NCBI GenBank assembly: GCA_002343265.1
Contig: DDSC01000004.1
Location: 1,898-65,897 of the forward strand
Source: Micavibrio sp. UBA2400
GTDB taxonomy: Bacteria; Pseudomonadota; Alphaproteobacteria; UBA2400
DNA: 64,000 bases
Direction of reading: 5' to 3'
Below the pieces are notes generated by a model, which had not been told where the DNA came from, did no database searches, and worked only from the letters and a program-made list of their open reading frames with translations. Position numbers and translations under genes: made by a program. Below, one piece after another: positions 27,799 to 63,375 of this stretch (positions are counted from its first letter, which is position 1; each line of letters begins with the position of its first letter).

Positions 27799-28848
27799 TT
27801 AGGCCTCCGCCGCGATCGCAAAGCTTTCCTGCTCCAGCTTATCCAGATCCAGCGCCGCGATCGCCGGACGCATGATCTGCGCCATTTTTATTGTCCACTC
27901 GACCAGCCAGCTGACTTGCCGCTCGCGGGCAGCCTCATTGCGAGCAGACTGGTTATCCAGATAAACGGCAATCCGGGCGGACTTACGCTGCAAATCGTTT
28001 TCATAACACAGGGGGAGCCCCGCAGCACTGTCGAGAACAGCGCGTTGCTGTTCAAGGGCGGCAAAGGCAGCCTTTGCCAGAGGCCCTGATATATAAACTT
28101 CGATCCGCAGTTTCTGATCGCGGATGGAAACTGCGGCGAGATGAAAGCGCACACGGCGATCGCCACCGAGCTGATCGACAGTCTGCCAGCCATCCTTGTA
28201 GGGTGTCCGGCCAGCCGCATTTGCATAAAGCGGTGTGAGCTTGGCCAGATAGTGCTGCCAGTAGCCCATCCAGAACTTTTGGGTGTCATTGGCGGGGGTT
28301 TGGGCGCTGGCTTTGCTGGCGCGGGCCATGGCCCGCGACCAGTTATTCGGACTGCACACCAGCGTGAAATTAGGGGCGCATTCCGATGCTTTTATCGGTC
28401 CCTCTCCCGCCAAACGGCACACACTGACTTCAATGGCGAAAAAATTTATTTCTTCTGGCGTATGCGCGTTCAACCAGTCAACCGCCGCGCGGTGCTCTTC
28501 CCGAAATTCTGGCGCAATCCAGATAATGTCCTTAACCTTGCGATCATCAATCTGGATCCCGGCGGTATAAGTCAGAATCTGACCCAGATGATTGTGGTCA
28601 CTGGGCTCGAGCTGATTTTCAATCAGCATGAGCCGACCATCGGCATCCTGCACCAGAATATCCGCTGCGTAGCGTCCCACGGCCTGCTCAACGGCCAAAG
28701 CTTCCAGAGTGCTGCATCCAAGCAGGTCAGCCAGCAATTCCAGATTATCAGATTGTGCCAACCAGGGCGTGAAATCGCGCGCTTCGTCAGGCCAGATCGC
28801 CCTTAAGGGGACAGGCGCAAGACGACCAAGAGTGACTGGAAGTGACAT
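27799..28848 (-). CDS. Nuclease-fold (PD-(D/E)xK-like) N-domain protein resembling the DUF4268 family
   Basis: ADILVQDADGRLMLIENQLEPSDHNHLGQILTYTAG...IWIAPEFREEH fits an endonuclease-like D...E.Q....DH.HLGQ.L.Y core. This is recalled from memory, not searched. Confidence 0.5.
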   Translation of the reverse strand: MSLPVTLGRLAPVPLRAIWPDEARDFTPWLAQSDNLELLADLLGCSTLEALAVEQAVGRYAADILVQDADGRLMLIENQLEPSDHNHLGQILTYTAGIQIDDRKVKDIIWIAPEFREEHRAAVDWLNAHTPEEINFFAIEVSVCRLAGEGPIKASECAPNFTLVCSPNNWSRAMARASKASAQTPANDTQKFWMGYWQHYLAKLTPLYANAAGRTPYKDGWQTVDQLGGDRRVRFHLAAVSIRDQKLRIEVYISGPLAKAAFAALEQQRAVLDSAAGLPLCYENDLQRKSARIAVYLDNQSARNEAARERQVSWLVEWTIKMAQIMRPAIAALDLDKLEQESFAIAAEA

Positions 28849-29165
28849 AAAACGCTCTCCTCGCTAGGCAATTTCTCGGGGTATAGACCTGAGTGTCAAT
28901 GCTATATCATGTCAGCCGCCTAATAAACTCGCGCGTCAGCTGCGCCGGGTTAGCGCGCAATGACTGCAGCTGGGTATGAAAGCGGGCATGGTAAAGTCGA
29001 GGGGAATCGGCCACGTAACAGGTAATTCGAAAAATTATTAATAATCAAGATATTAGCCTAGTTTCCGGATTTTGGTACGACTCTGTTTACCCTTTAACCA
29101 TTATGATAATGTTGGATTGCTGCGCCGCACCAAGACGGACGGCGGGTCCGGAAGGTTGGGGGATT

Positions 29166-30512
29166 ATGATTTATCACTGGTATGAATGGCACCGCCGCGC
29201 GTTGCAGCCCTTGAACGCCATGGCCGGGGCCACCCGCGCCGCGTTGCAGCACCCCCTGCTGCCAGCGTCCTACACCCATATGGGCCGCGCCATTGCCGCT
29301 AGTGCCGAACTGATGGAGCGCGTTACCCGCCGCTATGAAAAACCCGAGTTCGGCCTGACCCACACCGTGGTCGATGGTAAGAAGGTTGAGGTGGTGGAAG
29401 AGGTCTTGGGCGAGAAGCCGTTCTGTCGTCTGATTCACTTTGCCCGCGATGTGCCGGCCCACCGCCCGCGCGATCCGCAGATTCTGGTGGTGGCCCCCAT
29501 GAGCGGCCACCACGCCACTCTCTTACGCGGCACGGTAGAAGCGCTGCTGCCCGAGCATGATGTATATATCACCGACTGGCTGGATGCCCGGCTGGTGCCC
29601 CCCAGTGCGGGGGATTTCGGTCTGGACGACTATGTCGACTATCTGATCGATTTTCTGCAGGGTCTGGGGCCGGAAACCAATATCGTTGCCGTCTGTCAGC
29701 CCTCGGTGCCGGTGATGTGCGCGGTGGCGCTGATGGCCGCCGCAGACGATCCCGCCCAGCCGCGCTCGATGGCGCTGATGGGTGGCCCGATTGATGTGCG
29801 CAAAGCCCCTACGGCGGTCACCGAATTTGGCCGCAAGCACACGATTGACTGGTTCAAGCGCAATGTGGTGGCCGAAGTGCCGCCGCCCTACCCCGGCGCG
29901 TTTCGCAAGGTTTATCCCGGTTTTCTGCAGCTGATGGGCTTCATGAGCATGAATGCGGGTAATCATGTGAAGGAGCATCTCAATCTTTTCAAACACCTGA
30001 TTGAAGGTGATGGCGACAGCGCCGCCCGGCACCGCAAATTTTATGATGAGTATCTCGCCGTGATGGACATTCCCGGCCGGTTCTATCTCGATACGGTTGA
30101 ACATGTGTTCCAGAAGGCCAGCCTGCCCAAAGGCGAACTGATTATCCGTGGCAAGCGCGTTGACCCCAGCAAAATCAAACGCACCGCGCTGTTTACCATT
30201 GAAGGCGAGTTTGATGATATCTCGGCCCCCGGCCAGACCAAAGCGGCACACGATATCTGCAAGAACATTCCCAAGCATATGCGCGAGCACCATGTGCAAA
30301 AGGGCGTGGGCCACTACGGTATTTTCAACGGTCGCAAATGGCGCGAAGAGATCATGCCGCAGGTGCGCGATTTCATCCGCAATTTTGACAAGCCCGCCAA
30401 GCTGGGGCCGATCAGCAAGAAGCATCACGCGGCCCCGCTCCCGCCCAAGACCGCCCATGCGCGGCGCCTGGCTAACGCGGCAGCCCTGAAAGCCCGAACC
30501 AAAAAGAGATAG
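29166..30512 (+). CDS. phaZ: Intracellular polyhydroxyalkanoate (PHB) depolymerase
   Basis: N-terminal MIYHWYEWHRRAL and overall similarity to the intracellular PhaZ family. The ORF extends to 29103; the start at 29166 is more likely. Confidence 0.8.
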   Translation: MIYHWYEWHRRALQPLNAMAGATRAALQHPLLPASYTHMGRAIAASAELMERVTRRYEKPEFGLTHTVVDGKKVEVVEEVLGEKPFCRLIHFARDVPAHRPRDPQILVVAPMSGHHATLLRGTVEALLPEHDVYITDWLDARLVPPSAGDFGLDDYVDYLIDFLQGLGPETNIVAVCQPSVPVMCAVALMAAADDPAQPRSMALMGGPIDVRKAPTAVTEFGRKHTIDWFKRNVVAEVPPPYPGAFRKVYPGFLQLMGFMSMNAGNHVKEHLNLFKHLIEGDGDSAARHRKFYDEYLAVMDIPGRFYLDTVEHVFQKASLPKGELIIRGKRVDPSKIKRTALFTIEGEFDDISAPGQTKAAHDICKNIPKHMREHHVQKGVGHYGIFNGRKWREEIMPQVRDFIRNFDKPAKLGPISKKHHAAPLPPKTAHARRLANAAALKARTKKR

Positions 30513-30518
30513 CTGGCG

Positions 30519-31709
30519 TTAGCGCGGTAACAACCGCCGCACCGTCACAGGCGCGAGCTGTGCTAGACGCCGTACAGTGGGTGGGAGGCCTGCCAATTGA
30601 GTGGCGGAAAAACGGGTCCTCGCCGATTTGCCGCTCGTAGGTGGCAACGCCCCGCCTTCCGCACTACGTCCTACACTGGCATCGGCCTCTATGATCGCCC
30701 GGACACTAGCCGCTGTGAGTTCGCCATGGCCAACCGCCAGCGGGTCCGGCTCGCTCAGGTCCAGATCCAGCTCGGTCTGCCGGTCATCGACCGCGCCAGC
30801 GATCATTAAGTCATCCAGCCACTGCCAGCTGGCATCAAGACCAAACAATTTGTGCCGCCCAGCCAGAAGCATGCCAGCATAATGCGCGGGCTTAGCCGGG
30901 ATGCGGCGGCGCCCCAGTGCATCAATCGCCCCTTCGATTGCGGCATCGTCATAGCCGCGCGCATCCTGCAAGGTCAACAAACGCTCGCGGGTAACCTGAT
31001 CGCTATGCACGTCGATCGGATTAAGCTGCGTTAGGCTGTGCCAGACATCGTTCATGTCCGGACTTGGATAGTGATCGCGCACGGCCACGGCTGGCCAGCG
31101 AAAATTGCCAATCTTACGCGCCGGGATAAACTCACCACCGCTAAGCATATAATCAAGCAACAGCTCTTTGGCCCCCGGCGCGACCGGCCACGGCGCTGGG
31201 TTAGCTTTATGGCTGGCCAGATGCCTGAACCACGCGGTGGCCGGCTTGCGAACTGGCGTCTTGAGTGCAATCAGGGTTGAGTTGCTCGGGAAGTATCTGA
31301 CGTGGGGCCGCAGATTCGTGCGCTGAGACAGCAACAAAAAGACATCAACCGGAGGATGCCGGGGCGACCTGACTCGCATGGCACTGGCGAGAGATCCAAG
31401 ATACTGGGCCGGATTGTTATAAAAAGGCGCGGTGCGCAGAGGCTGGCGAATTTGCCGGTTCATGCCCAGCATACGCCCATCGAGTACCATCACAATCAGG
31501 CTCCGGCCCGCGGCCGGGTGCGCGATTTCGCTGAACATCTCCTTCACATCATCCGGTTCGGGCGCGGCCAAGCCATCCCCCACCTGCCACACCATGCTGG
31601 TTTCAGGGCCGCTGAAGGCTTGGCTAAGATCCCGCAGGTCATAGCCAGGCTGGGTGTTGGTGCCCTCGCCCCAAAGAATGCCAACCGACTGAACCGGGCG
31701 TGTTTCCAT
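30519..31709 (-). CDS. Hypothetical protein, paralog A of a tandem pair (396 aa)
   Basis: Shares with paralog B: V(G/A)I(L/I)WGEGT(N/S).Q, L(I/L)V.(V/I).DG, SLASA....PPVDVFLL(L/V) and colinear W-rich blocks. No family recognised. Confidence 0.6.
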   Translation of the reverse strand: METRPVQSVGILWGEGTNTQPGYDLRDLSQAFSGPETSMVWQVGDGLAAPEPDDVKEMFSEIAHPAAGRSLIVMVLDGRMLGMNRQIRQPLRTAPFYNNPAQYLGSLASAMRVRSPRHPPVDVFLLLSQRTNLRPHVRYFPSNSTLIALKTPVRKPATAWFRHLASHKANPAPWPVAPGAKELLLDYMLSGGEFIPARKIGNFRWPAVAVRDHYPSPDMNDVWHSLTQLNPIDVHSDQVTRERLLTLQDARGYDDAAIEGAIDALGRRRIPAKPAHYAGMLLAGRHKLFGLDASWQWLDDLMIAGAVDDRQTELDLDLSEPDPLAVGHGELTAASVRAIIEADASVGRSAEGGALPPTSGKSARTRFSATQLAGLPPTVRRLAQLAPVTVRRLLPR

Positions 31710-31715
31710 GACTAA

Positions 31716-32876
31716 CTATCCTTTTTGTAAACGACGGCGGGTGGAGGCAGGCAGGGCGTGTGCAAAGGGCTGTAATCTTTTTGGTAAAGCGGTGATCTCT
31801 GCGCCAGTCAGGCGGCGCACGGGCGCGCGCTGAGCCGGTGGGCGGGGTTGTTCCGTAACAGTGGCTACTACGACTCGTTCGATTGGCGGCGCACTCGCCT
31901 GAACCACCGGAACGGAGGTCACCACCCCAACGTCAACCGGATTATCGTTGGCGGCGACGAGAGTAAACATATTGCGCAGACGACTGGCAGTTTCATGACG
32001 ATCAAAACATTCGGCGGCGAGGGCGAGATAGAGCCGTTCCTTGATCTCAACTCGTTCATGACTCAAAACCGGCCGGCCGACGATGGGGTAGCGGGCAGCC
32101 AGATAGTTAAGTCGCCCGCGGTTGGCGTGGCGCTGCGACCATCCGTGCAGAGAGATGGTATCGACCAGTTGGCGCTGGCTGGCATACTCATGCCACAGCT
32201 CATTAAGGTGAATACGCTTGCAGCCCGACACCGCAATGTCGGGTACACCCCAATAGCCCCGTTTGCCCGAGGCCATCAGGTCGATCAGCAGATCTTTTGC
32301 GGCGGGCGGCGTAGCCCAGTGCATGGCCCGGTTGCCCGCGGCATCAAGCCCATAGACACTGCTGTGCACCCAGCTATCGGTTACAGTGTTGGGGCGCATG
32401 CGTACCGCCACCACAGTAGAGCCGCGCGGTAACTGGCGGGCGAGAGCATGAATAAAATCGGTTTTACGGGCCACCAGCAGAAAAACATCGACCGGTGGGC
32501 TGGCTTTGGGCAGCGCTGACGCCAATGAACGCAAGAGCCATGGCGCGTCCCGTCCGCTATGCCACAGATGAGCGGGCTGCACTTTATCGCGGCGCCAGCC
32601 ATCCATGATTCCCACCAACAGGCGGCGGTTGAAGGCGGCAGCCGTAAAGTCTTTCAACAGCTGCTGCACGTCCCTAGCCGCGGGTACAGAATCGCCATCA
32701 CCGCACACCCGCAAGGGTGTATTGGGATTGCCGCTAAACGCCGTATAAGATGCGCCGTAGGAAACGGGCAGTTGATGCTGATTGGACGTGCCCTCACCCC
32801 AGATGACGGCAACGGAATCAATCTCTTGAGAAACAACCTGCGCAGGCATGGCAGGCAACCTAGCGGCGCTCGCCAC
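31716..32876 (-). CDS. Hypothetical protein, paralog B of a tandem pair (386 aa)
   Basis: See paralog A. The pair is colinear and co-oriented, 6 nt apart, with a divergent Pro/Arg-rich C-terminal tail. Confidence 0.6.
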   Translation of the reverse strand: MASAARLPAMPAQVVSQEIDSVAVIWGEGTSNQHQLPVSYGASYTAFSGNPNTPLRVCGDGDSVPAARDVQQLLKDFTAAAFNRRLLVGIMDGWRRDKVQPAHLWHSGRDAPWLLRSLASALPKASPPVDVFLLVARKTDFIHALARQLPRGSTVVAVRMRPNTVTDSWVHSSVYGLDAAGNRAMHWATPPAAKDLLIDLMASGKRGYWGVPDIAVSGCKRIHLNELWHEYASQRQLVDTISLHGWSQRHANRGRLNYLAARYPIVGRPVLSHERVEIKERLYLALAAECFDRHETASRLRNMFTLVAANDNPVDVGVVTSVPVVQASAPPIERVVVATVTEQPRPPAQRAPVRRLTGAEITALPKRLQPFAHALPASTRRRLQKG

Positions 32877-32897: not shown

Positions 32898-34391
32898 TTA
32901 AGATTGACTGCGCACCCGGTTAACGGCGTCTTTCCATTGGCTCTGCCAACGCTGCGGCAGGTTGCTGGGCTGGGGCAGAAAGCTCTTGTCGCACTGCCAA
33001 CCCGCCGCAAGCACCGGCAAGGACGGGATAAAGCCACCCCCGAGCAGAGCGAGATAAGCGGCGCCAAGCGCGGTGGTTTCCGTTAGCACCGGGCGATCAA
33101 CCCGCAGACCTGTAATATCGGCCAGCTCCTGCATCAGGGCGTTGTTGCGGCTCATACCGCCATCAACTTTTATGGTTGTCAGGGCCTGACCTTGCCGATC
33201 GCGAGTCAGGCAATCAATCAAATCCATGCTTTGAAAGGCCATGCTATCGATAGTGGCTCGCGCAATATGCCCCAGATGGCTATCGCGGGTGAGGCCCAAA
33301 ATGGCGCCACGGGCATTCGCATCCCAATAGGGTGCACCAAGACCTGTGAACGCGGGCACCATAACCACGCCGCCACTGTCGGGCACACTCGCCGCCAGTG
33401 CCTCAACTTCCTTGCTGGCGGTAATGGCATGCAGCCCATCGCGCAGCCATTGCACCGCGGCACCAGCGACAAAAATACTGCCTTCCAGCGCGTAGGTTAC
33501 TTCGCCTTGCAGGCGCAGCGCAACGGTAGTGAGCAGCCGATGGGTGGAGGTAACCGCCTGCTTACCCGTGTTGAGCAAAACAAAGCAGCCGGTGCCATAG
33601 GTGCTCTTGAGGCTGCCGGGCTCCAGACACAACTGACCAACTGCTGCCGCCTGTTGATCGCCCGCCACGCCGCGAATGGGTATGGCGGCACCAAACAGGG
33701 CTGCATCGCATAAGCCGAAATCGCCAGCACTGTCCAGCACCTGCGGCAGTACCTCGGGCGGGATAGTAAAATATGCCAGCAGTTCGGCGTCCCAGTGCTG
33801 GGTGCGAATGTTAAACAGCAAAGTCCGGCTGGCGTTCGTGGCATCGGTAGCATGCACCTTGCCCCCGGTGAGCTTGTAGATCAGCCAGCTGTCGATGGTG
33901 CCAAAGGCCAGCTCACCGGCCTCGGCGCGCGCGCGGATACCCTGCCCCTTATCGATCAGCCAGAATAGTTTGGTAGCCGAAAAATACGGATCGGCCAGCA
34001 GACCGGTTTTTTCACGCAGCCACTCTTCGGTACCATTGTTCTTGAGCGCATTACAGCTGCTGGCCGTGCGGCGGTCCTGCCAGACAATGGCATTGTAAAC
34101 CGGCTCGCCGGTCTTGCGATCCCACAGCACTGTGGTCTCACGCTGATTGGTAATGCCGATAGCTTTGACCTGCGCGGCCTTAAGATTGGCTTTCTCGAGC
34201 GCTTGCTTGATAACCTGCTGCGTATGCTGCCAGATCTCGCGCGCATCATGCTCAACCCAGCCATCTTGCGGGTAATGCTGGGTCAGCTCGATCTGTGCAC
34301 TCGCCAGTTCGCGCGGCACATTGTTCTCAAACTGATAGAGAATGGCACGGGTCGAGGTGGTGCCCTGGTCAAGCGCAAGGATGATGGTCAT
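32898..34391 (-). CDS. glpK: Glycerol kinase
   Basis: ALDQGTTSTRA N-terminal sugar-kinase motif and a full-length FGGY-family match. Confidence 0.95.
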   Translation of the reverse strand: MTIILALDQGTTSTRAILYQFENNVPRELASAQIELTQHYPQDGWVEHDAREIWQHTQQVIKQALEKANLKAAQVKAIGITNQRETTVLWDRKTGEPVYNAIVWQDRRTASSCNALKNNGTEEWLREKTGLLADPYFSATKLFWLIDKGQGIRARAEAGELAFGTIDSWLIYKLTGGKVHATDATNASRTLLFNIRTQHWDAELLAYFTIPPEVLPQVLDSAGDFGLCDAALFGAAIPIRGVAGDQQAAAVGQLCLEPGSLKSTYGTGCFVLLNTGKQAVTSTHRLLTTVALRLQGEVTYALEGSIFVAGAAVQWLRDGLHAITASKEVEALAASVPDSGGVVMVPAFTGLGAPYWDANARGAILGLTRDSHLGHIARATIDSMAFQSMDLIDCLTRDRQGQALTTIKVDGGMSRNNALMQELADITGLRVDRPVLTETTALGAAYLALLGGGFIPSLPVLAAGWQCDKSFLPQPSNLPQRWQSQWKDAVNRVRSQS

Positions 34392-34630
34392 GATGATGTC
34401 CAGTGTAGAAAATCAGATATCAGGTAACAAATCAGGACCAAAGCGGGTACGCTGAACCCCGCCGCCCACCAGCGCGTGGCGGGGTGGCACAACCCGCCGA
34501 TAAGTGTCAGGCACAAAGCCAGACCCAGCGCAGCATAACTGCGCAGTTCGGGCAGATAAAAATGCGCCCCTACTAATCCTGCGCCCCATAGCGCCAACAG
34601 GCCGAAAAAGATCAGCCGGGCGCAGCTCAT
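34388..34630 (-). CDS. Hypothetical small membrane protein (80 aa, 2-3 TM)
   Basis: Hydrophobic ORF whose stop overlaps the glpK start (ATGA). Could be a shadow ORF. Confidence 0.3.
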   Translation of the reverse strand: MSCARLIFFGLLALWGAGLVGAHFYLPELRSYAALGLALCLTLIGGLCHPATRWWAAGFSVPALVLICYLISDFLHWTSS

Positions 34631-61083: not shown

Positions 61084-63375
61084 TTATCTCGAATTGTCGA
61101 GAAATACCCCATGGTCCTGCGCATAGCCCCAGATTTTGGGGCGAAGTGAGTGATCGGCCGCTCCTTGCAGACTCTCCAGAAAGGCCGAAAACGGCCCAAG
61201 CCGAAGCGAGCGCAGCATCAGCTTGACCCCGTCCATCGCTCCCGCCGTCACCGACAGGCTGCGAAAGCCAAGACCGAGGAGCACCATTGCCTCAAGTGGT
61301 GCGCTGGCCATCTCGCCGCACAAGGTCAATGGCTTACCGGCCTGCTGACACGTCTGCGCGACGTGGCGCAGCATATTGAGAATGGCCGGGGCCAGCGGGT
61401 CATACCGCCCGGTAATGGCGGGATTCCCCCGATCGGCCGCAAAGGCAAACTGTAGCAGGTCGTTACTGCCAACCGAAAGGAAATCCACCTCCGCGAGCAG
61501 AGCGGGCAACTGGAACAGCAGGGCGGGCACTTCCAGCATGGCCCCCACTTCAAGCCGGGCCGGCGGTGGCTCCCCGCGTGCGGCAGCACGCTGCACTTCG
61601 ATCTGCAACAGTTTTTTCGCGGCGCGCAGCTCGGCAACATCAGCCACCATGGGAAACATCAAGCGCAGGGACTGCCCCGCCCCGGCCCGCAACAGAGCGC
61701 GCAGCTGGGTGCGCAGCCAGGCCGGCCGATCCAGTCCGATGCGAATGGCCCGCCAGCCCAGCGCCGGGTTTTCCTCAGCCGGATGGTTGAAATAGGGCAG
61801 GAATTTATCGCCCCCGATATCAAGGGTGCGGAAGGTTACCGGCTTGCCCGCTGCACCAGCCAGCACCTTGCGGTAGATATCGGCCTGCACCTCAACATCC
61901 GGGAAGTCGCCGCGCGAGAGGAACGGGATTTCGGTCCGATACAGCCCGATGCCCTCAGCGCGGGTTGGCTCCAGCTGGGCAATGTCGAGCAGCAGGCCGC
62001 AGTTGAGCAGCAAGGAAACAGGCACACCATCGGCGGTGACTGAAGGCAGAGCACGTACCTCGCTGTTGCGCCGCGTCTGATCGGCGCGCAGGGCCATGCC
62101 GCGGGCAAACTCGGCCCGAATTTCCTCCGAGGGGCGGATCATGACCTGTGCATTATCGGCATCGATCAGCAGGTCATCTCCGCTTTCGATGCGACTGAGA
62201 GCCTGCGCGCATTGCCCGATCACCGGCAGGCCCAGCGCCCGTGCCACAATCACCACATGGCTGGTGGCGGCCCCCTCCTCCAGAACAATGGCGCGCAGGT
62301 GTTCGCTGGGCACCTCGAGCAACTCGGCCGGGCCAAGCGAGCGCGCCACCAGCACCGCATTCTCGGGCAGCGGCGCGGCGCGGAAGGCATCGGCCGGACG
62401 CAGCAGATGCTGCAGCAGGCGACGCGACAGATCTTCAAAGTCAGCTACCCGCTCGCGCAGATACTCGTCGGGCTGGGTGGTTAGATGGGTTTTGATCTGC
62501 TCGAGTACGCGCAGCACCGCCCCCTCGGCCGAGAGGCCGGTGCGGATGGCCTCGTGCAACCGCGCAATCCAGCCCCGGTCCGCCGCAATCAGCCGATAGG
62601 TACCCAGTACCTCATCGCGCGTCGAATTTCCGCTGGGCGCAAACAGGGCATCGAGCGCGGCATGCATGGAGGACAGGGCCGTCTGCAAGCGCTTGATCTC
62701 ATGCGCCGGGTTATCGGAGACCAGATGTTCGGGCACCACTTCAGGCGCCCGCAGCACCGCCTGCCCGATCGCCAGCCCGGCGTTCAGGGTCACCCCCGTC
62801 AAACGACCTGGTAAAAACGCCACCGCCACATCGGTACCCGCTTCGGTGCGGGCGATATACTCGCCGCTCGCTACCAGCTCGGCCAGCACCATGGCCACGG
62901 TTTCAAGTGCCTCAATGGTCTCGGCCGTATAGCTGAGTGCGTCGCGGTGCTGAATGGCCAGCACGCCGCGCACCTTACCCGCCCGAATGAGCGGGACCGC
63001 GCAGAACGAGCGATATGGCTCTTCCCCGGTTTCCGGACGGTAGGCAAACTGCGGATGCTCGGGCGCGTTACTGGTAGTAAAGGGTGCCAGCGAGGCAGCC
63101 GTCGCACCAATCAGGCCCTCCCCCACCCGCAAGCGGGTTTGGTGCACGGCGGACTCTTTCAGACCAACGGTCGCAAACAGTTCCAGCACTTCGCCGGCCC
63201 GCTGCAGATACAGCGAGCAGACATCCGCACCACTGGTGCGGGCAATCAGCCGGACCGCCAGATCAAGCTTGTCCTGCGCGGGGGTATCGGCGGCCATGGC
63301 GGTGCGCAAACTGGATAGCAGTGTACGGGTATCCAGCAGTGACGGAGCCGGTGTTTCCGACAACTCCCGGCTCAT
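61084..63375 (-). CDS. ptsP: Phosphoenolpyruvate–protein phosphotransferase PtsP (EI-Ntr, N-terminal GAF)
   Basis: GAF domain plus enzyme I PEP-utilising domains (phospho-His region, and C-terminal PEP-binding ..LSVGSNDL.QF...DR). Confidence 0.9.
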   Translation of the reverse strand: MSRELSETPAPSLLDTRTLLSSLRTAMAADTPAQDKLDLAVRLIARTSGADVCSLYLQRAGEVLELFATVGLKESAVHQTRLRVGEGLIGATAASLAPFTTSNAPEHPQFAYRPETGEEPYRSFCAVPLIRAGKVRGVLAIQHRDALSYTAETIEALETVAMVLAELVASGEYIARTEAGTDVAVAFLPGRLTGVTLNAGLAIGQAVLRAPEVVPEHLVSDNPAHEIKRLQTALSSMHAALDALFAPSGNSTRDEVLGTYRLIAADRGWIARLHEAIRTGLSAEGAVLRVLEQIKTHLTTQPDEYLRERVADFEDLSRRLLQHLLRPADAFRAAPLPENAVLVARSLGPAELLEVPSEHLRAIVLEEGAATSHVVIVARALGLPVIGQCAQALSRIESGDDLLIDADNAQVMIRPSEEIRAEFARGMALRADQTRRNSEVRALPSVTADGVPVSLLLNCGLLLDIAQLEPTRAEGIGLYRTEIPFLSRGDFPDVEVQADIYRKVLAGAAGKPVTFRTLDIGGDKFLPYFNHPAEENPALGWRAIRIGLDRPAWLRTQLRALLRAGAGQSLRLMFPMVADVAELRAAKKLLQIEVQRAAARGEPPPARLEVGAMLEVPALLFQLPALLAEVDFLSVGSNDLLQFAFAADRGNPAITGRYDPLAPAILNMLRHVAQTCQQAGKPLTLCGEMASAPLEAMVLLGLGFRSLSVTAGAMDGVKLMLRSLRLGPFSAFLESLQGAADHSLRPKIWGYAQDHGVFLDNSR

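Follow-up and report, generated by a model that had tools for sequence, protein, structure and literature searches.

A tandem gene pair between glpK and phaZ in Micavibrio sp. UBA2400: a small orphan family with a predicted caspase-like fold

The gene pair

We have studied two adjacent genes, which we call A and B, in a stretch of 64,000 nt from the genome of Micavibrio sp. UBA2400 (contig DDSC01000004.1, positions 1,898 to 65,897). The whole of this stretch will be called the window. Both genes lie on the minus strand between the glycerol kinase gene glpK and phaZ, the gene of an intracellular polyhydroxybutyrate (PHB) depolymerase; B is the upstream copy and A the downstream one. Their proteins belong to a tiny family which is an orphan at the sequence level, and both of them are modelled with the fold of the caspases, with other residues in the positions of the catalytic dyad. 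Our best explanation, held tentatively and with less than even confidence when taken as a whole, is that A and B are cytoplasmic pseudo-caspases: non-catalytic binding or scaffold modules which would pair with each other and would be recruited to their place of action by the C-terminal tail. The features of the locus are given in Table 1.

Table 1. Features of the gene pair and of its surroundings (positions in the window)
Feature	Position	Strand	Description
Gene A (downstream paralog)	30519..31709	-	396 aa, ATG start; from the list of open reading frames
A, caspase-like domain	31065..31688	-	About residues 8–215; b1 VGILWG (G14 invariant); b3 LIVMVL, then D77-G78-R79; b4 VDVFLLL, then S128-Q129 (Cys position); b6 PAVAV (P206 invariant)
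A, helical domain	30798..31055	-	Residues 219–304, fast-evolving; motif YA.AL..W..FG; AlphaFold2 helices, pLDDT 80–94
A, low-complexity linker, predicted disordered	30618..30791	-	Residues 307–364; pLDDT <50 for 307–332 and 340–364
A, basic C-terminal peptide	30522..30617	-	Residues 365–396, TRFSATQLAGLPPTVRRLAQLAPVTVRRLLPR; three short predicted helices; pLDDT ~88–90
Gene B (upstream paralog)	31716..32849	-	377 aa from ATG at 32849; stop TAG 31716–31718
Gene B, longest open reading frame	31716..32876	-	386 aa from GTG at 32876; from the list of open reading frames
B, caspase-like (clan CD fold) domain	32220..32822	-	About residues 10–210; His-equivalent D83 (LLVGIMD-G-W); Cys-equivalent region A127-R128 after PPVDVFLLV
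B, basic C-terminal peptide	31719..31826	-	Last 36 aa, APVRRLTGAEITALPKRLQPFAHALPASTRRRLQKG; net charge +7; tail alignment, pLDDT 74–87
glpK	32898..34391	-	FGGY glycerol kinase (Pfam FGGY_N, FGGY_C); directly upstream of B, co-directional
phaZ	29103..30512	+	Intracellular PHB depolymerase, PHB_depo_C (Pfam PF06850); convergent with A, downstream border of the slot
phaZ, C-terminal extension	30390..30512	+	Lys/Arg/Ala-rich, beyond PHB_depo_C
80-aa open reading frame	34388..34630	-	No Pfam match
DUF4268 gene	27799..28848	-	349 aa; PADLOC candidate defence PDC-S11 (E 1.8e-88); between phaZ and htpX
PEP-utilising enzyme	61084..63375	-	GAF domain; PtsP / EI-Ntr type

The first-pass annotation of the window had described two co-oriented open reading frames (ORFs) of 396 and 386 aa, 6 nt apart. 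The ORF list agrees with this, but the second length probably needs a correction. Gene B most likely starts at the ATG in 32849 rather than at the GTG in 32876, because it is the choice of both gene callers, with 377 aa in the JGI and Logan records, because the lead before the first strand is then as short as in the orthologues, and because AGG sits 9 nt 5′ of the ATG. The gap between B and A is 6 nt, and the stop of A is found 6 nt from the convergent stop of phaZ, as had been noted. From the stop of glpK to B there are 21 nt if B is counted from GTG and 48 nt if it is counted from ATG. A and B share one reading frame, in which the TAG stop of B is followed by two codons and by the ATG of A; a Shine-Dalgarno-like AAAGGA lies 9 nt 5′ of this ATG, within the 3′ end of B.

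Pairwise comparison confirms that A and B are homologous and have been retained as tandem paralogs: they have 30% identity over 230 aa (BLASTP, E 3e-20), and the blocks WGEGT, SLASA and PPVDVFLL, which had been named before, are found in the comparison. Neither copy is a pseudogene, since both ORFs are intact and each has orthologues in two other genomes. Those of B are L083_1 and L085_2, with 35–42% identity; those of A are L083_2 (P0003, 37%) and L099_1 (38%). Here and below, numbers with L and P are our own designations of loci and proteins. The overlapping plus-strand ORFs in 31302..31715 and 31848..32432 were treated as shadow ORFs of the two minus-strand genes. A recent horizontal insertion or a mobile element was also considered and rejected: the GC content of the A/B region is that of its flanks, no repeats bracketing the pair were found and the slot is kept across the clade.

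A small orphan family

Neither A nor B has a match at E ≤ 10 in Pfam, NCBIfam, PADLOC, PHROGs or the PDB sequences, and a profile search against the latter gave no match either. This is the case for the defence hidden Markov models (HMMs) of PADLOC-DB 2.0 and for the following Pfam families: hmmscan against Pfam-A found no match at that threshold of A or B to Peptidase_C14 (PF00656), Raptor_N, CHAT, Peptidase_C13, C11 or C25. None of the 17 cluster representatives of the family matches Peptidase_C14 at E ≤ 1. The Phasin, Phasin_2, PhaM and PhaR-type families of Pfam and NCBIfam are matched neither by A and B nor by the rest of the family. When all members are compared with Pfam only two weak, spurious matches appear, SLT_4 (E 0.096) and DUF6030 (E 0.27).

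Word-indexed homologue searches in 5.8 billion clusters, carried out with A, with A and B and with a 17-sequence alignment, returned only the queries and P0015. The relatives surfaced only in an exhaustive HMMER profile search of 1.84 billion representatives at 50% identity, in which 17 proteins came out at E < 1e-3; for six of these the E value is below 1e-30. The family amounts to 17 clusters in about 15 billion proteins. Each cluster that was looked up has one or two members, with no name beyond 'hypothetical protein'. A metagenome scan with a degenerate DNA pattern for PVDVF[LM]L.A..(13 aa)..P.GS added two more arrays of the L088 type and two chance matches. No relative was found when GTDB species representatives and viral contigs were scanned with A+B patterns, and the family HMM detected no further member in 80 phaZ loci of GTDB representatives or in the rest of the window. 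The earlier statement that the family is unrecognised holds at the sequence level, and by this measure the family is an orphan.

Domain architecture and predicted fold

The family alignment falls into an alpha/beta domain (about 210 aa), a helical region (about 90 aa), a linker rich in P/A/S/T/Q/G and a tail (about 32 aa). The N-terminal domain is characterized by the motifs hhhhG, LLhxhh-[D/N]-G-R, PVDVFLLxA..P.FIH.YA..LP.GS.hVAV.T, AR.LLL and P.IAVSG. Only G14, P120, F124, P141, S144 and P206 are invariant in the whole family, and D122 is found in 95% of its members. Mean pairwise identity is 37.5% in the tail, 28.9% in the N-terminal domain, 18.9% in the helical region and 17.9% in the linker, which has a P/A/S/T/Q/G content of 0.44–0.80 across the family. 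The last hundred residues had been described as Pro/Arg/Ala-rich tails which had merely diverged; instead they consist of a low-complexity linker and a basic peptide of about 32 aa, which is the best conserved segment family-wide. The proteins have no signal peptide and no transmembrane segment, and their first strand starts at residues 3–13.

The AlphaFold2 model of A, obtained with a 17-sequence alignment, has a mean confidence (pLDDT) of 80.2 and a predicted TM-score (pTM) of 0.74. Residues 1–306 are ordered, 307–364 are disordered (<50) and the tail forms helices in 369–393 with pLDDT ~88–90. The model of B has a pLDDT of 69.9 overall, with 85–94 in the core, 74–87 in the tail and <50 in the linker which precedes it. 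Both models are similar to solved structures of clan CD, so that the description of the pair as an unknown fold has to be revised: A and B are both modelled as the caspase-hemoglobinase fold. The best structural matches are the N-terminal caspase-like domain of Raptor (RNC; PDB 5wbi, 7pqh) and the protease-like domain of c-FLIP (3h13), which are themselves pseudo-caspases. Identity in the structural alignments is 9–13%, sequence similarity is not detectable and Pfam Raptor_N is unmatched. Raptor and c-FLIP are eukaryotic, whereas the family is bacterial and has a single caspase-like domain with a helical domain, a linker and a basic tail, and no HEAT/WD40 or DED.

In caspases the catalytic His is found in the loop after b3 (strand-S-H-G, then a hairpin), and the Cys comes 8 residues after the Pro that opens b4 (P-K-L-F-I-I-Q-A-C). 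We have mapped both positions by means of the spacing of motifs and of the secondary structure predicted for the proteins. In A the predicted elements match the caspase layout, with a strand in 70–76, D77-G78-R79 and a hairpin in 79–90, and then P120, a strand in 121–127 (VDVFLLL) and S128-Q129. The His position is D in both A (D77) and B (D83), and D, N, E or Q across the family. In 84% of the members Ala is found in the Cys position, which comes 8 residues behind the invariant Pro; only A has Ser there and some members have Gly, and the residue which follows this position varies freely. On this mapping the His/Cys dyad of Peptidase_C14 appears to be absent in A, in B and in the family. The family looks like a pseudo-protease, because its dyad positions hold D/N/E/Q and Ala and, apart from S144, all its invariant residues are Gly, Pro or Phe. 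The secondary structure prediction places D122 at the N-terminal end of b4 and S144 at that of b5, away from the active-site face of clan CD. The first-pass suggestion of an undescribed enzyme pair finds no support here, with Asp/Asn and Ala in the canonical positions and no polar constellation kept family-wide.

The basic C-terminal peptide

The tail follows the pattern R(P)RLT..E/Q h..L(PPKLRK.AQ.AP or YKPGKPLHQQHP)..hh(R/K)RhL(R/H)(K/R)G and has a net charge of +6 to +10 in all members (+8 in A, computed on the last 36 aa). A peculiarity of these tails is that all paralogs of a genome have one subtype in common, either LPPKLRK..AP..RRxLR or LYKPGKPLHQQHPAVVRRLL. An HMM of the tail matches every member of the family, with E values from 1e-6 to 5e-20; in the window and about 100 loci it has no other match that rises above noise. 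The extreme C-termini, such as PAVVRRLLRRG and PGVIRRILRKG, have the general form P-x-V-V-R-R-L-L-R-K/R-G. The best 11-mer of each tail has a hydrophobic moment of 0.46–0.82, always above the means of shuffled sequences (0.35–0.47).

Two well known bacterial proteins show a limited likeness to this peptide. The membrane-targeting sequence of E. coli MinD is KGFLKRLFGG (PMC5471200); VVRRLL..G in the family tail shares with FLKRLFGG the succession hydrophobic-hydrophobic-basic-basic-hydrophobic-hydrophobic and the final Gly. In FtsZ a disordered linker joins the globular domain to a conserved peptide at the C-terminus, KEPDYLDIPAFLR-KQAD (PMC5125937). The layout of the family is alike, with a folded domain, a P/A/S/T linker and a short conserved terminal peptide, and its P-A-h-h-R-R core recalls P-A-F-L-R-K of the FtsZ peptide DIPAFLRK, which is only a lead. 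In both cases the likeness spans just 6–8 residues and there is no homology; the family tail has about 32 aa and a second conserved basic helix upstream.

PhaZ also ends in a Lys/Arg/Ala-rich extension (…PLPPK.AH..RLANAAALKA..KK), which is kept in L083, L089, L091, L095, L003 and L004 and recalls the histone-like tails found in granule-associated proteins. A relation of this extension with the family tail was rejected, as the tail HMM does not match PhaZ.

A conserved genomic slot

No terminator-like site was found between glpK and B. Together with the short intergenic gaps, this suggests that A and B are probably co-transcribed with glpK. The same arrangement is found in other genomes: glpK is upstream of the array in L083, L085/86, L088, L091-95 and L100/101, and a convergent phaZ borders the array in L083, L087, L089, L091-93, L095 and L100. 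Among the contigs which carry an array are Ga0119907_1000085 (JGI 3300030366), Ga0654418_0000001 (3300078752, 522 kb) and k141_996079 (ERZ17175172). The slot is conserved as a positional association, with 2–4 tandem copies which are downstream of glpK and co-directional with it, and convergent with phaZ.

Its content is variable. L083 has glpK, a B-like gene, an A-like gene (P0003), a P0004-like gene and the convergent phaZ. In sample SRR29270582, L085 and L099 give together glpK, P0005, a B-like gene, an A-like gene, P0004 and a partial minus-strand ORF in the position of phaZ. This is the largest array seen, with four copies; the join rests solely on an exact overlap of 26 nt between the 3′ end of L085 and the 5′ end of L099. 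L087 has a paralog, P0007 and phaZ; L088 and L100 have glpK and then two copies; L091-94 have glpK, two copies and phaZ. In L095 and L089 glpK is followed by three copies, a gene for an Esterase_PHB with signal peptide and phaZ. The Esterase_PHB (PF10503) genes of this sister clade (clade II), in L089 2301..3254 (+) and L095 11123..12295 (+), lie between the array and phaZ and are co-directional with the array.

The members can be grouped into orthogroups: B, A and C are found in the clade of the window, D, E and F in a second clade, while a third one has G and H. In the clade of the window the order B-A(-C) is kept. The idea of a pair gains some weight, since every fully covered slot has at least two copies and the order B-A is found in three genomes. 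Outside the slot there are two singletons, the most distant members of the family, each inserted in a conserved cluster of housekeeping genes. P0015 is found in L084, 5951..7057 (+), in the context dapA-smpB-X-rpoZ-spoT; P0016 (300 aa) is found in L097, 8001..8903 (+), in the context miaB-X-phoH-ybeY-corC-lnt, and is devoid of linker and basic tail.

The window is matched by a metagenome contig (JGI 3300030366, and Logan SRR1506985). By synteny based on PhaZ, the nearest relatives among the GTDB species representatives are two metagenome-assembled genomes (MAGs) labelled Pseudobdellovibrionaceae (77% identity) and Bdellovibrionales (75%), followed by Micavibrio and other Alphaproteobacteria with 53–61%; NCBI files Micavibrio under Pseudobdellovibrionaceae. 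The lineage with arrays is uncultured and probably Micavibrio-like. One of the two nearest relatives in this collection, L003 (GTDB representative MAG CAYSDE010000009.1, 10016..12983), has glpK and phaZ in convergent orientation, 16 nt apart, with no array. Such an empty slot is better explained by loss of the array, or by a state that preceded the origin of the family.

Elsewhere the window has the genes of an ordinary chromosome, among them radA, lysS, motB, methylmalonyl-CoA mutase, a che cluster, bamB, der, prfA and ptsP. No secretion-system genes were found in the window or in the fetched loci, which have flanks of up to 21 kb. The 80-aa ORF of Table 1 overlaps the stop of amn and the start of glpK by 4 nt each, and a 76-aa ORF has the same position in L083; a translationally coupled operon amn-orf80-glpK-B-A is suggested by these 4-nt overlaps and their presence in L083. 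The DUF4268 gene is absent from the syntenic loci L083, L089, L095 and L004, which indicates that it was inserted in this strain only, about 1 kb away from the array. The window also has a PEP-utilising enzyme of the PtsP type; the nitrogen phosphotransferase system is linked to PHB accumulation in other Alphaproteobacteria.

Evolutionary rate

The family changes much faster than its neighbours. Identity to the window is 72–82% for GlpK, 82–93% for PhaZ and 85–92% for MaeB, and only 25–42% for the best family match. In L087 PhaZ is 93% identical to that of the window and the neighbouring family member has 23–27% global identity to A and B (32% to B over 222 aa in tblastn). In the same genome pairs the Nei-Gojobori number of nonsynonymous substitutions (dN) is 0.34–0.68 for the family and 0.05–0.12 for flanking genes; synonymous substitutions (dS) are saturated. 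L091 and L094 are close strains (dS 0.06–0.2) and the only pair with unsaturated dS. In this pair the dN/dS ratio (omega) is 0.04–0.06 for the family and 0.03 for glpK, and pervasive positive selection is unsupported. The family evolves 5–10 times faster than its flanks and is under purifying selection between close strains. The secreted esterase of clade II is as fast as the genes of the array, with 48% amino acid identity where PhaZ has 92%.

Interpretation

In the reading that we prefer, A and B would act as binding or scaffold modules and not as proteases, as Raptor and c-FLIP do. Paralogs would probably pair through the edge-strand (b6) interface of caspase type, giving homo- or hetero-oligomers; a heteromeric system is plausible by analogy, because proteins with the caspase fold dimerise. 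The basic tail shared by all paralogs would recruit them to one common target. As target we favour an anionic surface such as the inner membrane, because the end of the tail is consistently, if weakly, amphipathic and resembles MinD in its hydrophobic/basic pattern. Alternatively the tail may dock back on the folded domain, either in cis or between paralogs.

Several points weigh against this explanation. The positions of the dyad are deduced from motif spacing and from predicted secondary structure. Taken one by one, the tails do not differ significantly from shuffled sequences in the amphipathicity of their last 11 residues (fraction 0.02–0.31), and the resemblance to MinD is as short as stated above. 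The high pLDDT of the tail suits a peptide docked on the body of the protein at least as well as one that serves as a free membrane anchor. A housekeeping scaffold would not usually evolve so fast. The family also appears to be dispensable, because L003, the nearest relative in the genome collections, lacks the array.

Neither the fold nor the loss of catalysis is new. Dead caspases are known in eukaryotes (Raptor, c-FLIP), and in bacteria as the pseudo-orthocaspases described by Klemencic et al. 2019 (PMC6426788). In their account these are prokaryotic proteins with a caspase fold and a lost dyad, whose function is unknown or regulatory; they are mainly cyanobacterial, and in their C14 p20 domain Tyr/Ser have replaced His/Cys. 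As they are described there, pseudo-orthocaspases are recognisable as Peptidase_C14, in contrast with A, B and the 17 representatives, which have no C14 match at E ≤ 1. The family also differs from them by D/N and Ala instead of Y/S, by another architecture, by its tandem arrays and by the linkage to glpK. It differs from the active peptidases of clan CD (caspases, metacaspases/orthocaspases C14, legumain/GPI8 C13, CHAT, gingipain C25, clostripain C11 and separase) by having no His-Cys dyad, no match to the family HMMs and neither a pro-domain nor features of p20/p10 cleavage sites. What is new is the domain architecture and the distinctive, conserved genomic arrangement; the family is no detectable member of the known pseudo-caspase families.

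The alternative to which we give most weight, although we judge it unlikely, is that these proteins are exported effectors used in predation or in interaction with a host. The basic tail would be a secretion signal read by the coupling protein of a type IV-like or unknown system, and prey proteins would be bound by the pseudo-caspase domain and the helical domain. In a predator similar to Micavibrio this would account for the tandem expansion and the fast divergence. It would agree with a tail which is most conserved while the rest diverges, which has a uniform subtype in each genome and which places a charge of +6 to +10 at the extreme C-terminus. Substrates of the VirB/D4 systems carry Arg-rich C-terminal signals. 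The lack of an N-terminal signal peptide, with b1 starting at residues 3–13, the copy number of 0–4 and the dN of 5–10 times that of the flanks also fit, as do the nearest named relatives, which are Micavibrio-type MAGs, and the secreted esterase gene which follows the array in clade II. However, neither the window nor any fetched locus has a secretion-system gene, the tail is present in no other protein of the available DNA, and A and B sit together with glpK in what is probably a housekeeping operon. Positive selection is undetected, with omega 0.04–0.06 between close strains. We also count against effectors that the tail seems to have no clear match to the Agrobacterium consensus R-x7-R-x-R-x-R. 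Compared with the positively charged, unstructured C-terminal signal of VirB/D4-type substrates the tail gives a mixed picture, as it has the charge but is predicted to be helical with high pLDDT.

A bolder form of the same idea has still less probability: a new class of effectors, with the peptide of about 32 aa as an export or targeting signal and a pseudo-caspase which binds prey proteins, the arrays being an arsenal co-induced with glycerol catabolism during feeding. In one version of it, based on analogy, the P-A-V-V-R-R tail would mimic P-A-F-L-R-K of FtsZ and might engage partners of the FtsA or ZipA type.

Equally improbable, in our opinion, is an association with PHB granules, in which the family would provide non-catalytic proteins of the granule surface, or regulators of the depolymerase, anchored by their amphipathic basic tail. 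Such a role would explain the constant position beside phaZ and, in clade II, beside a PHB-esterase gene: the array abuts phaZ in every slot locus and Esterase_PHB (PF10503) in L089 and L095. Amphipathic helices and basic C-terminal tails are typical of granule proteins (phasins, PhaM, PhaF), and PhaZ of this clade has a basic C-terminal extension as well. But phaZ is convergent and not co-transcribed, the co-directional partner being glpK; the tail HMM does not match the tail of PhaZ; there is no Pfam match to phasin, PhaM or PhaR; and the esterase of clade II has a signal peptide and is therefore extracytoplasmic. Furthermore the distant singletons (smpB/rpoZ and miaB/phoH) have no PHB gene nearby, and L003 keeps glpK and phaZ in the absence of the array.

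We give slightly less credit to a conflict or defence module in a chromosomal hotspot, made of decoys, sensors or regulators directed against phages or competitors and diversified in an arms race. The content of the slot does vary among close relatives, as the case of L087 demonstrates, and a PDC-S11/DUF4268 gene of PADLOC is inserted 1 kb away, in the window only. Against this, A and B have no PADLOC match; no partner effector, NTPase or sensor gene accompanies them and the slot only ever holds the family of A and B; GC content is native and mobile-element borders are lacking; selection is purifying on short time scales; and the dyad required for a CHAT or caspase effector is absent.

Least probable of all is an undescribed enzyme pair, which would use the caspase-like scaffold for a reaction other than proteolysis, perhaps one connected with glycerol or PHB metabolism, through D122 and S144 or through D/N77 and R79: D122 is nearly invariant, S144 is invariant, a D/N-G-R motif occupies the canonical active-site loop and the operon is shared with a metabolic enzyme, but D122 and S144 are predicted opposite to the clan CD active-site face, R79 (W in B, T in P0013) and the FIH motif are not invariant, dN is 5–10 times that of neighbouring enzymes and the best structural matches are themselves pseudo-enzymes.

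Significance

If the pseudo-caspase reading is correct, the family is a bacterial branch of the caspase-hemoglobinase fold, orphan in sequence, that gave up catalysis. It would also represent a new layout, with a pseudo-caspase, a helical domain, a disordered linker and a basic terminal peptide. With no more than 17 clusters in about 15 billion proteins, the family is too narrowly distributed to be of wide importance. Its natural history is unusually clean: one conserved slot, 0–4 copies and a rate which exceeds that of the flanks 5–10 times. Hardly any work exists on pseudo-caspases of bacteria, for which this family is a compact system to study the role of a dead caspase fold in a prokaryote, with two testable hypotheses: recruitment by the tail and pairing between paralogs. 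The family may also tell us something about how an uncultured Micavibrio-like clade lives, which is possibly predatory.

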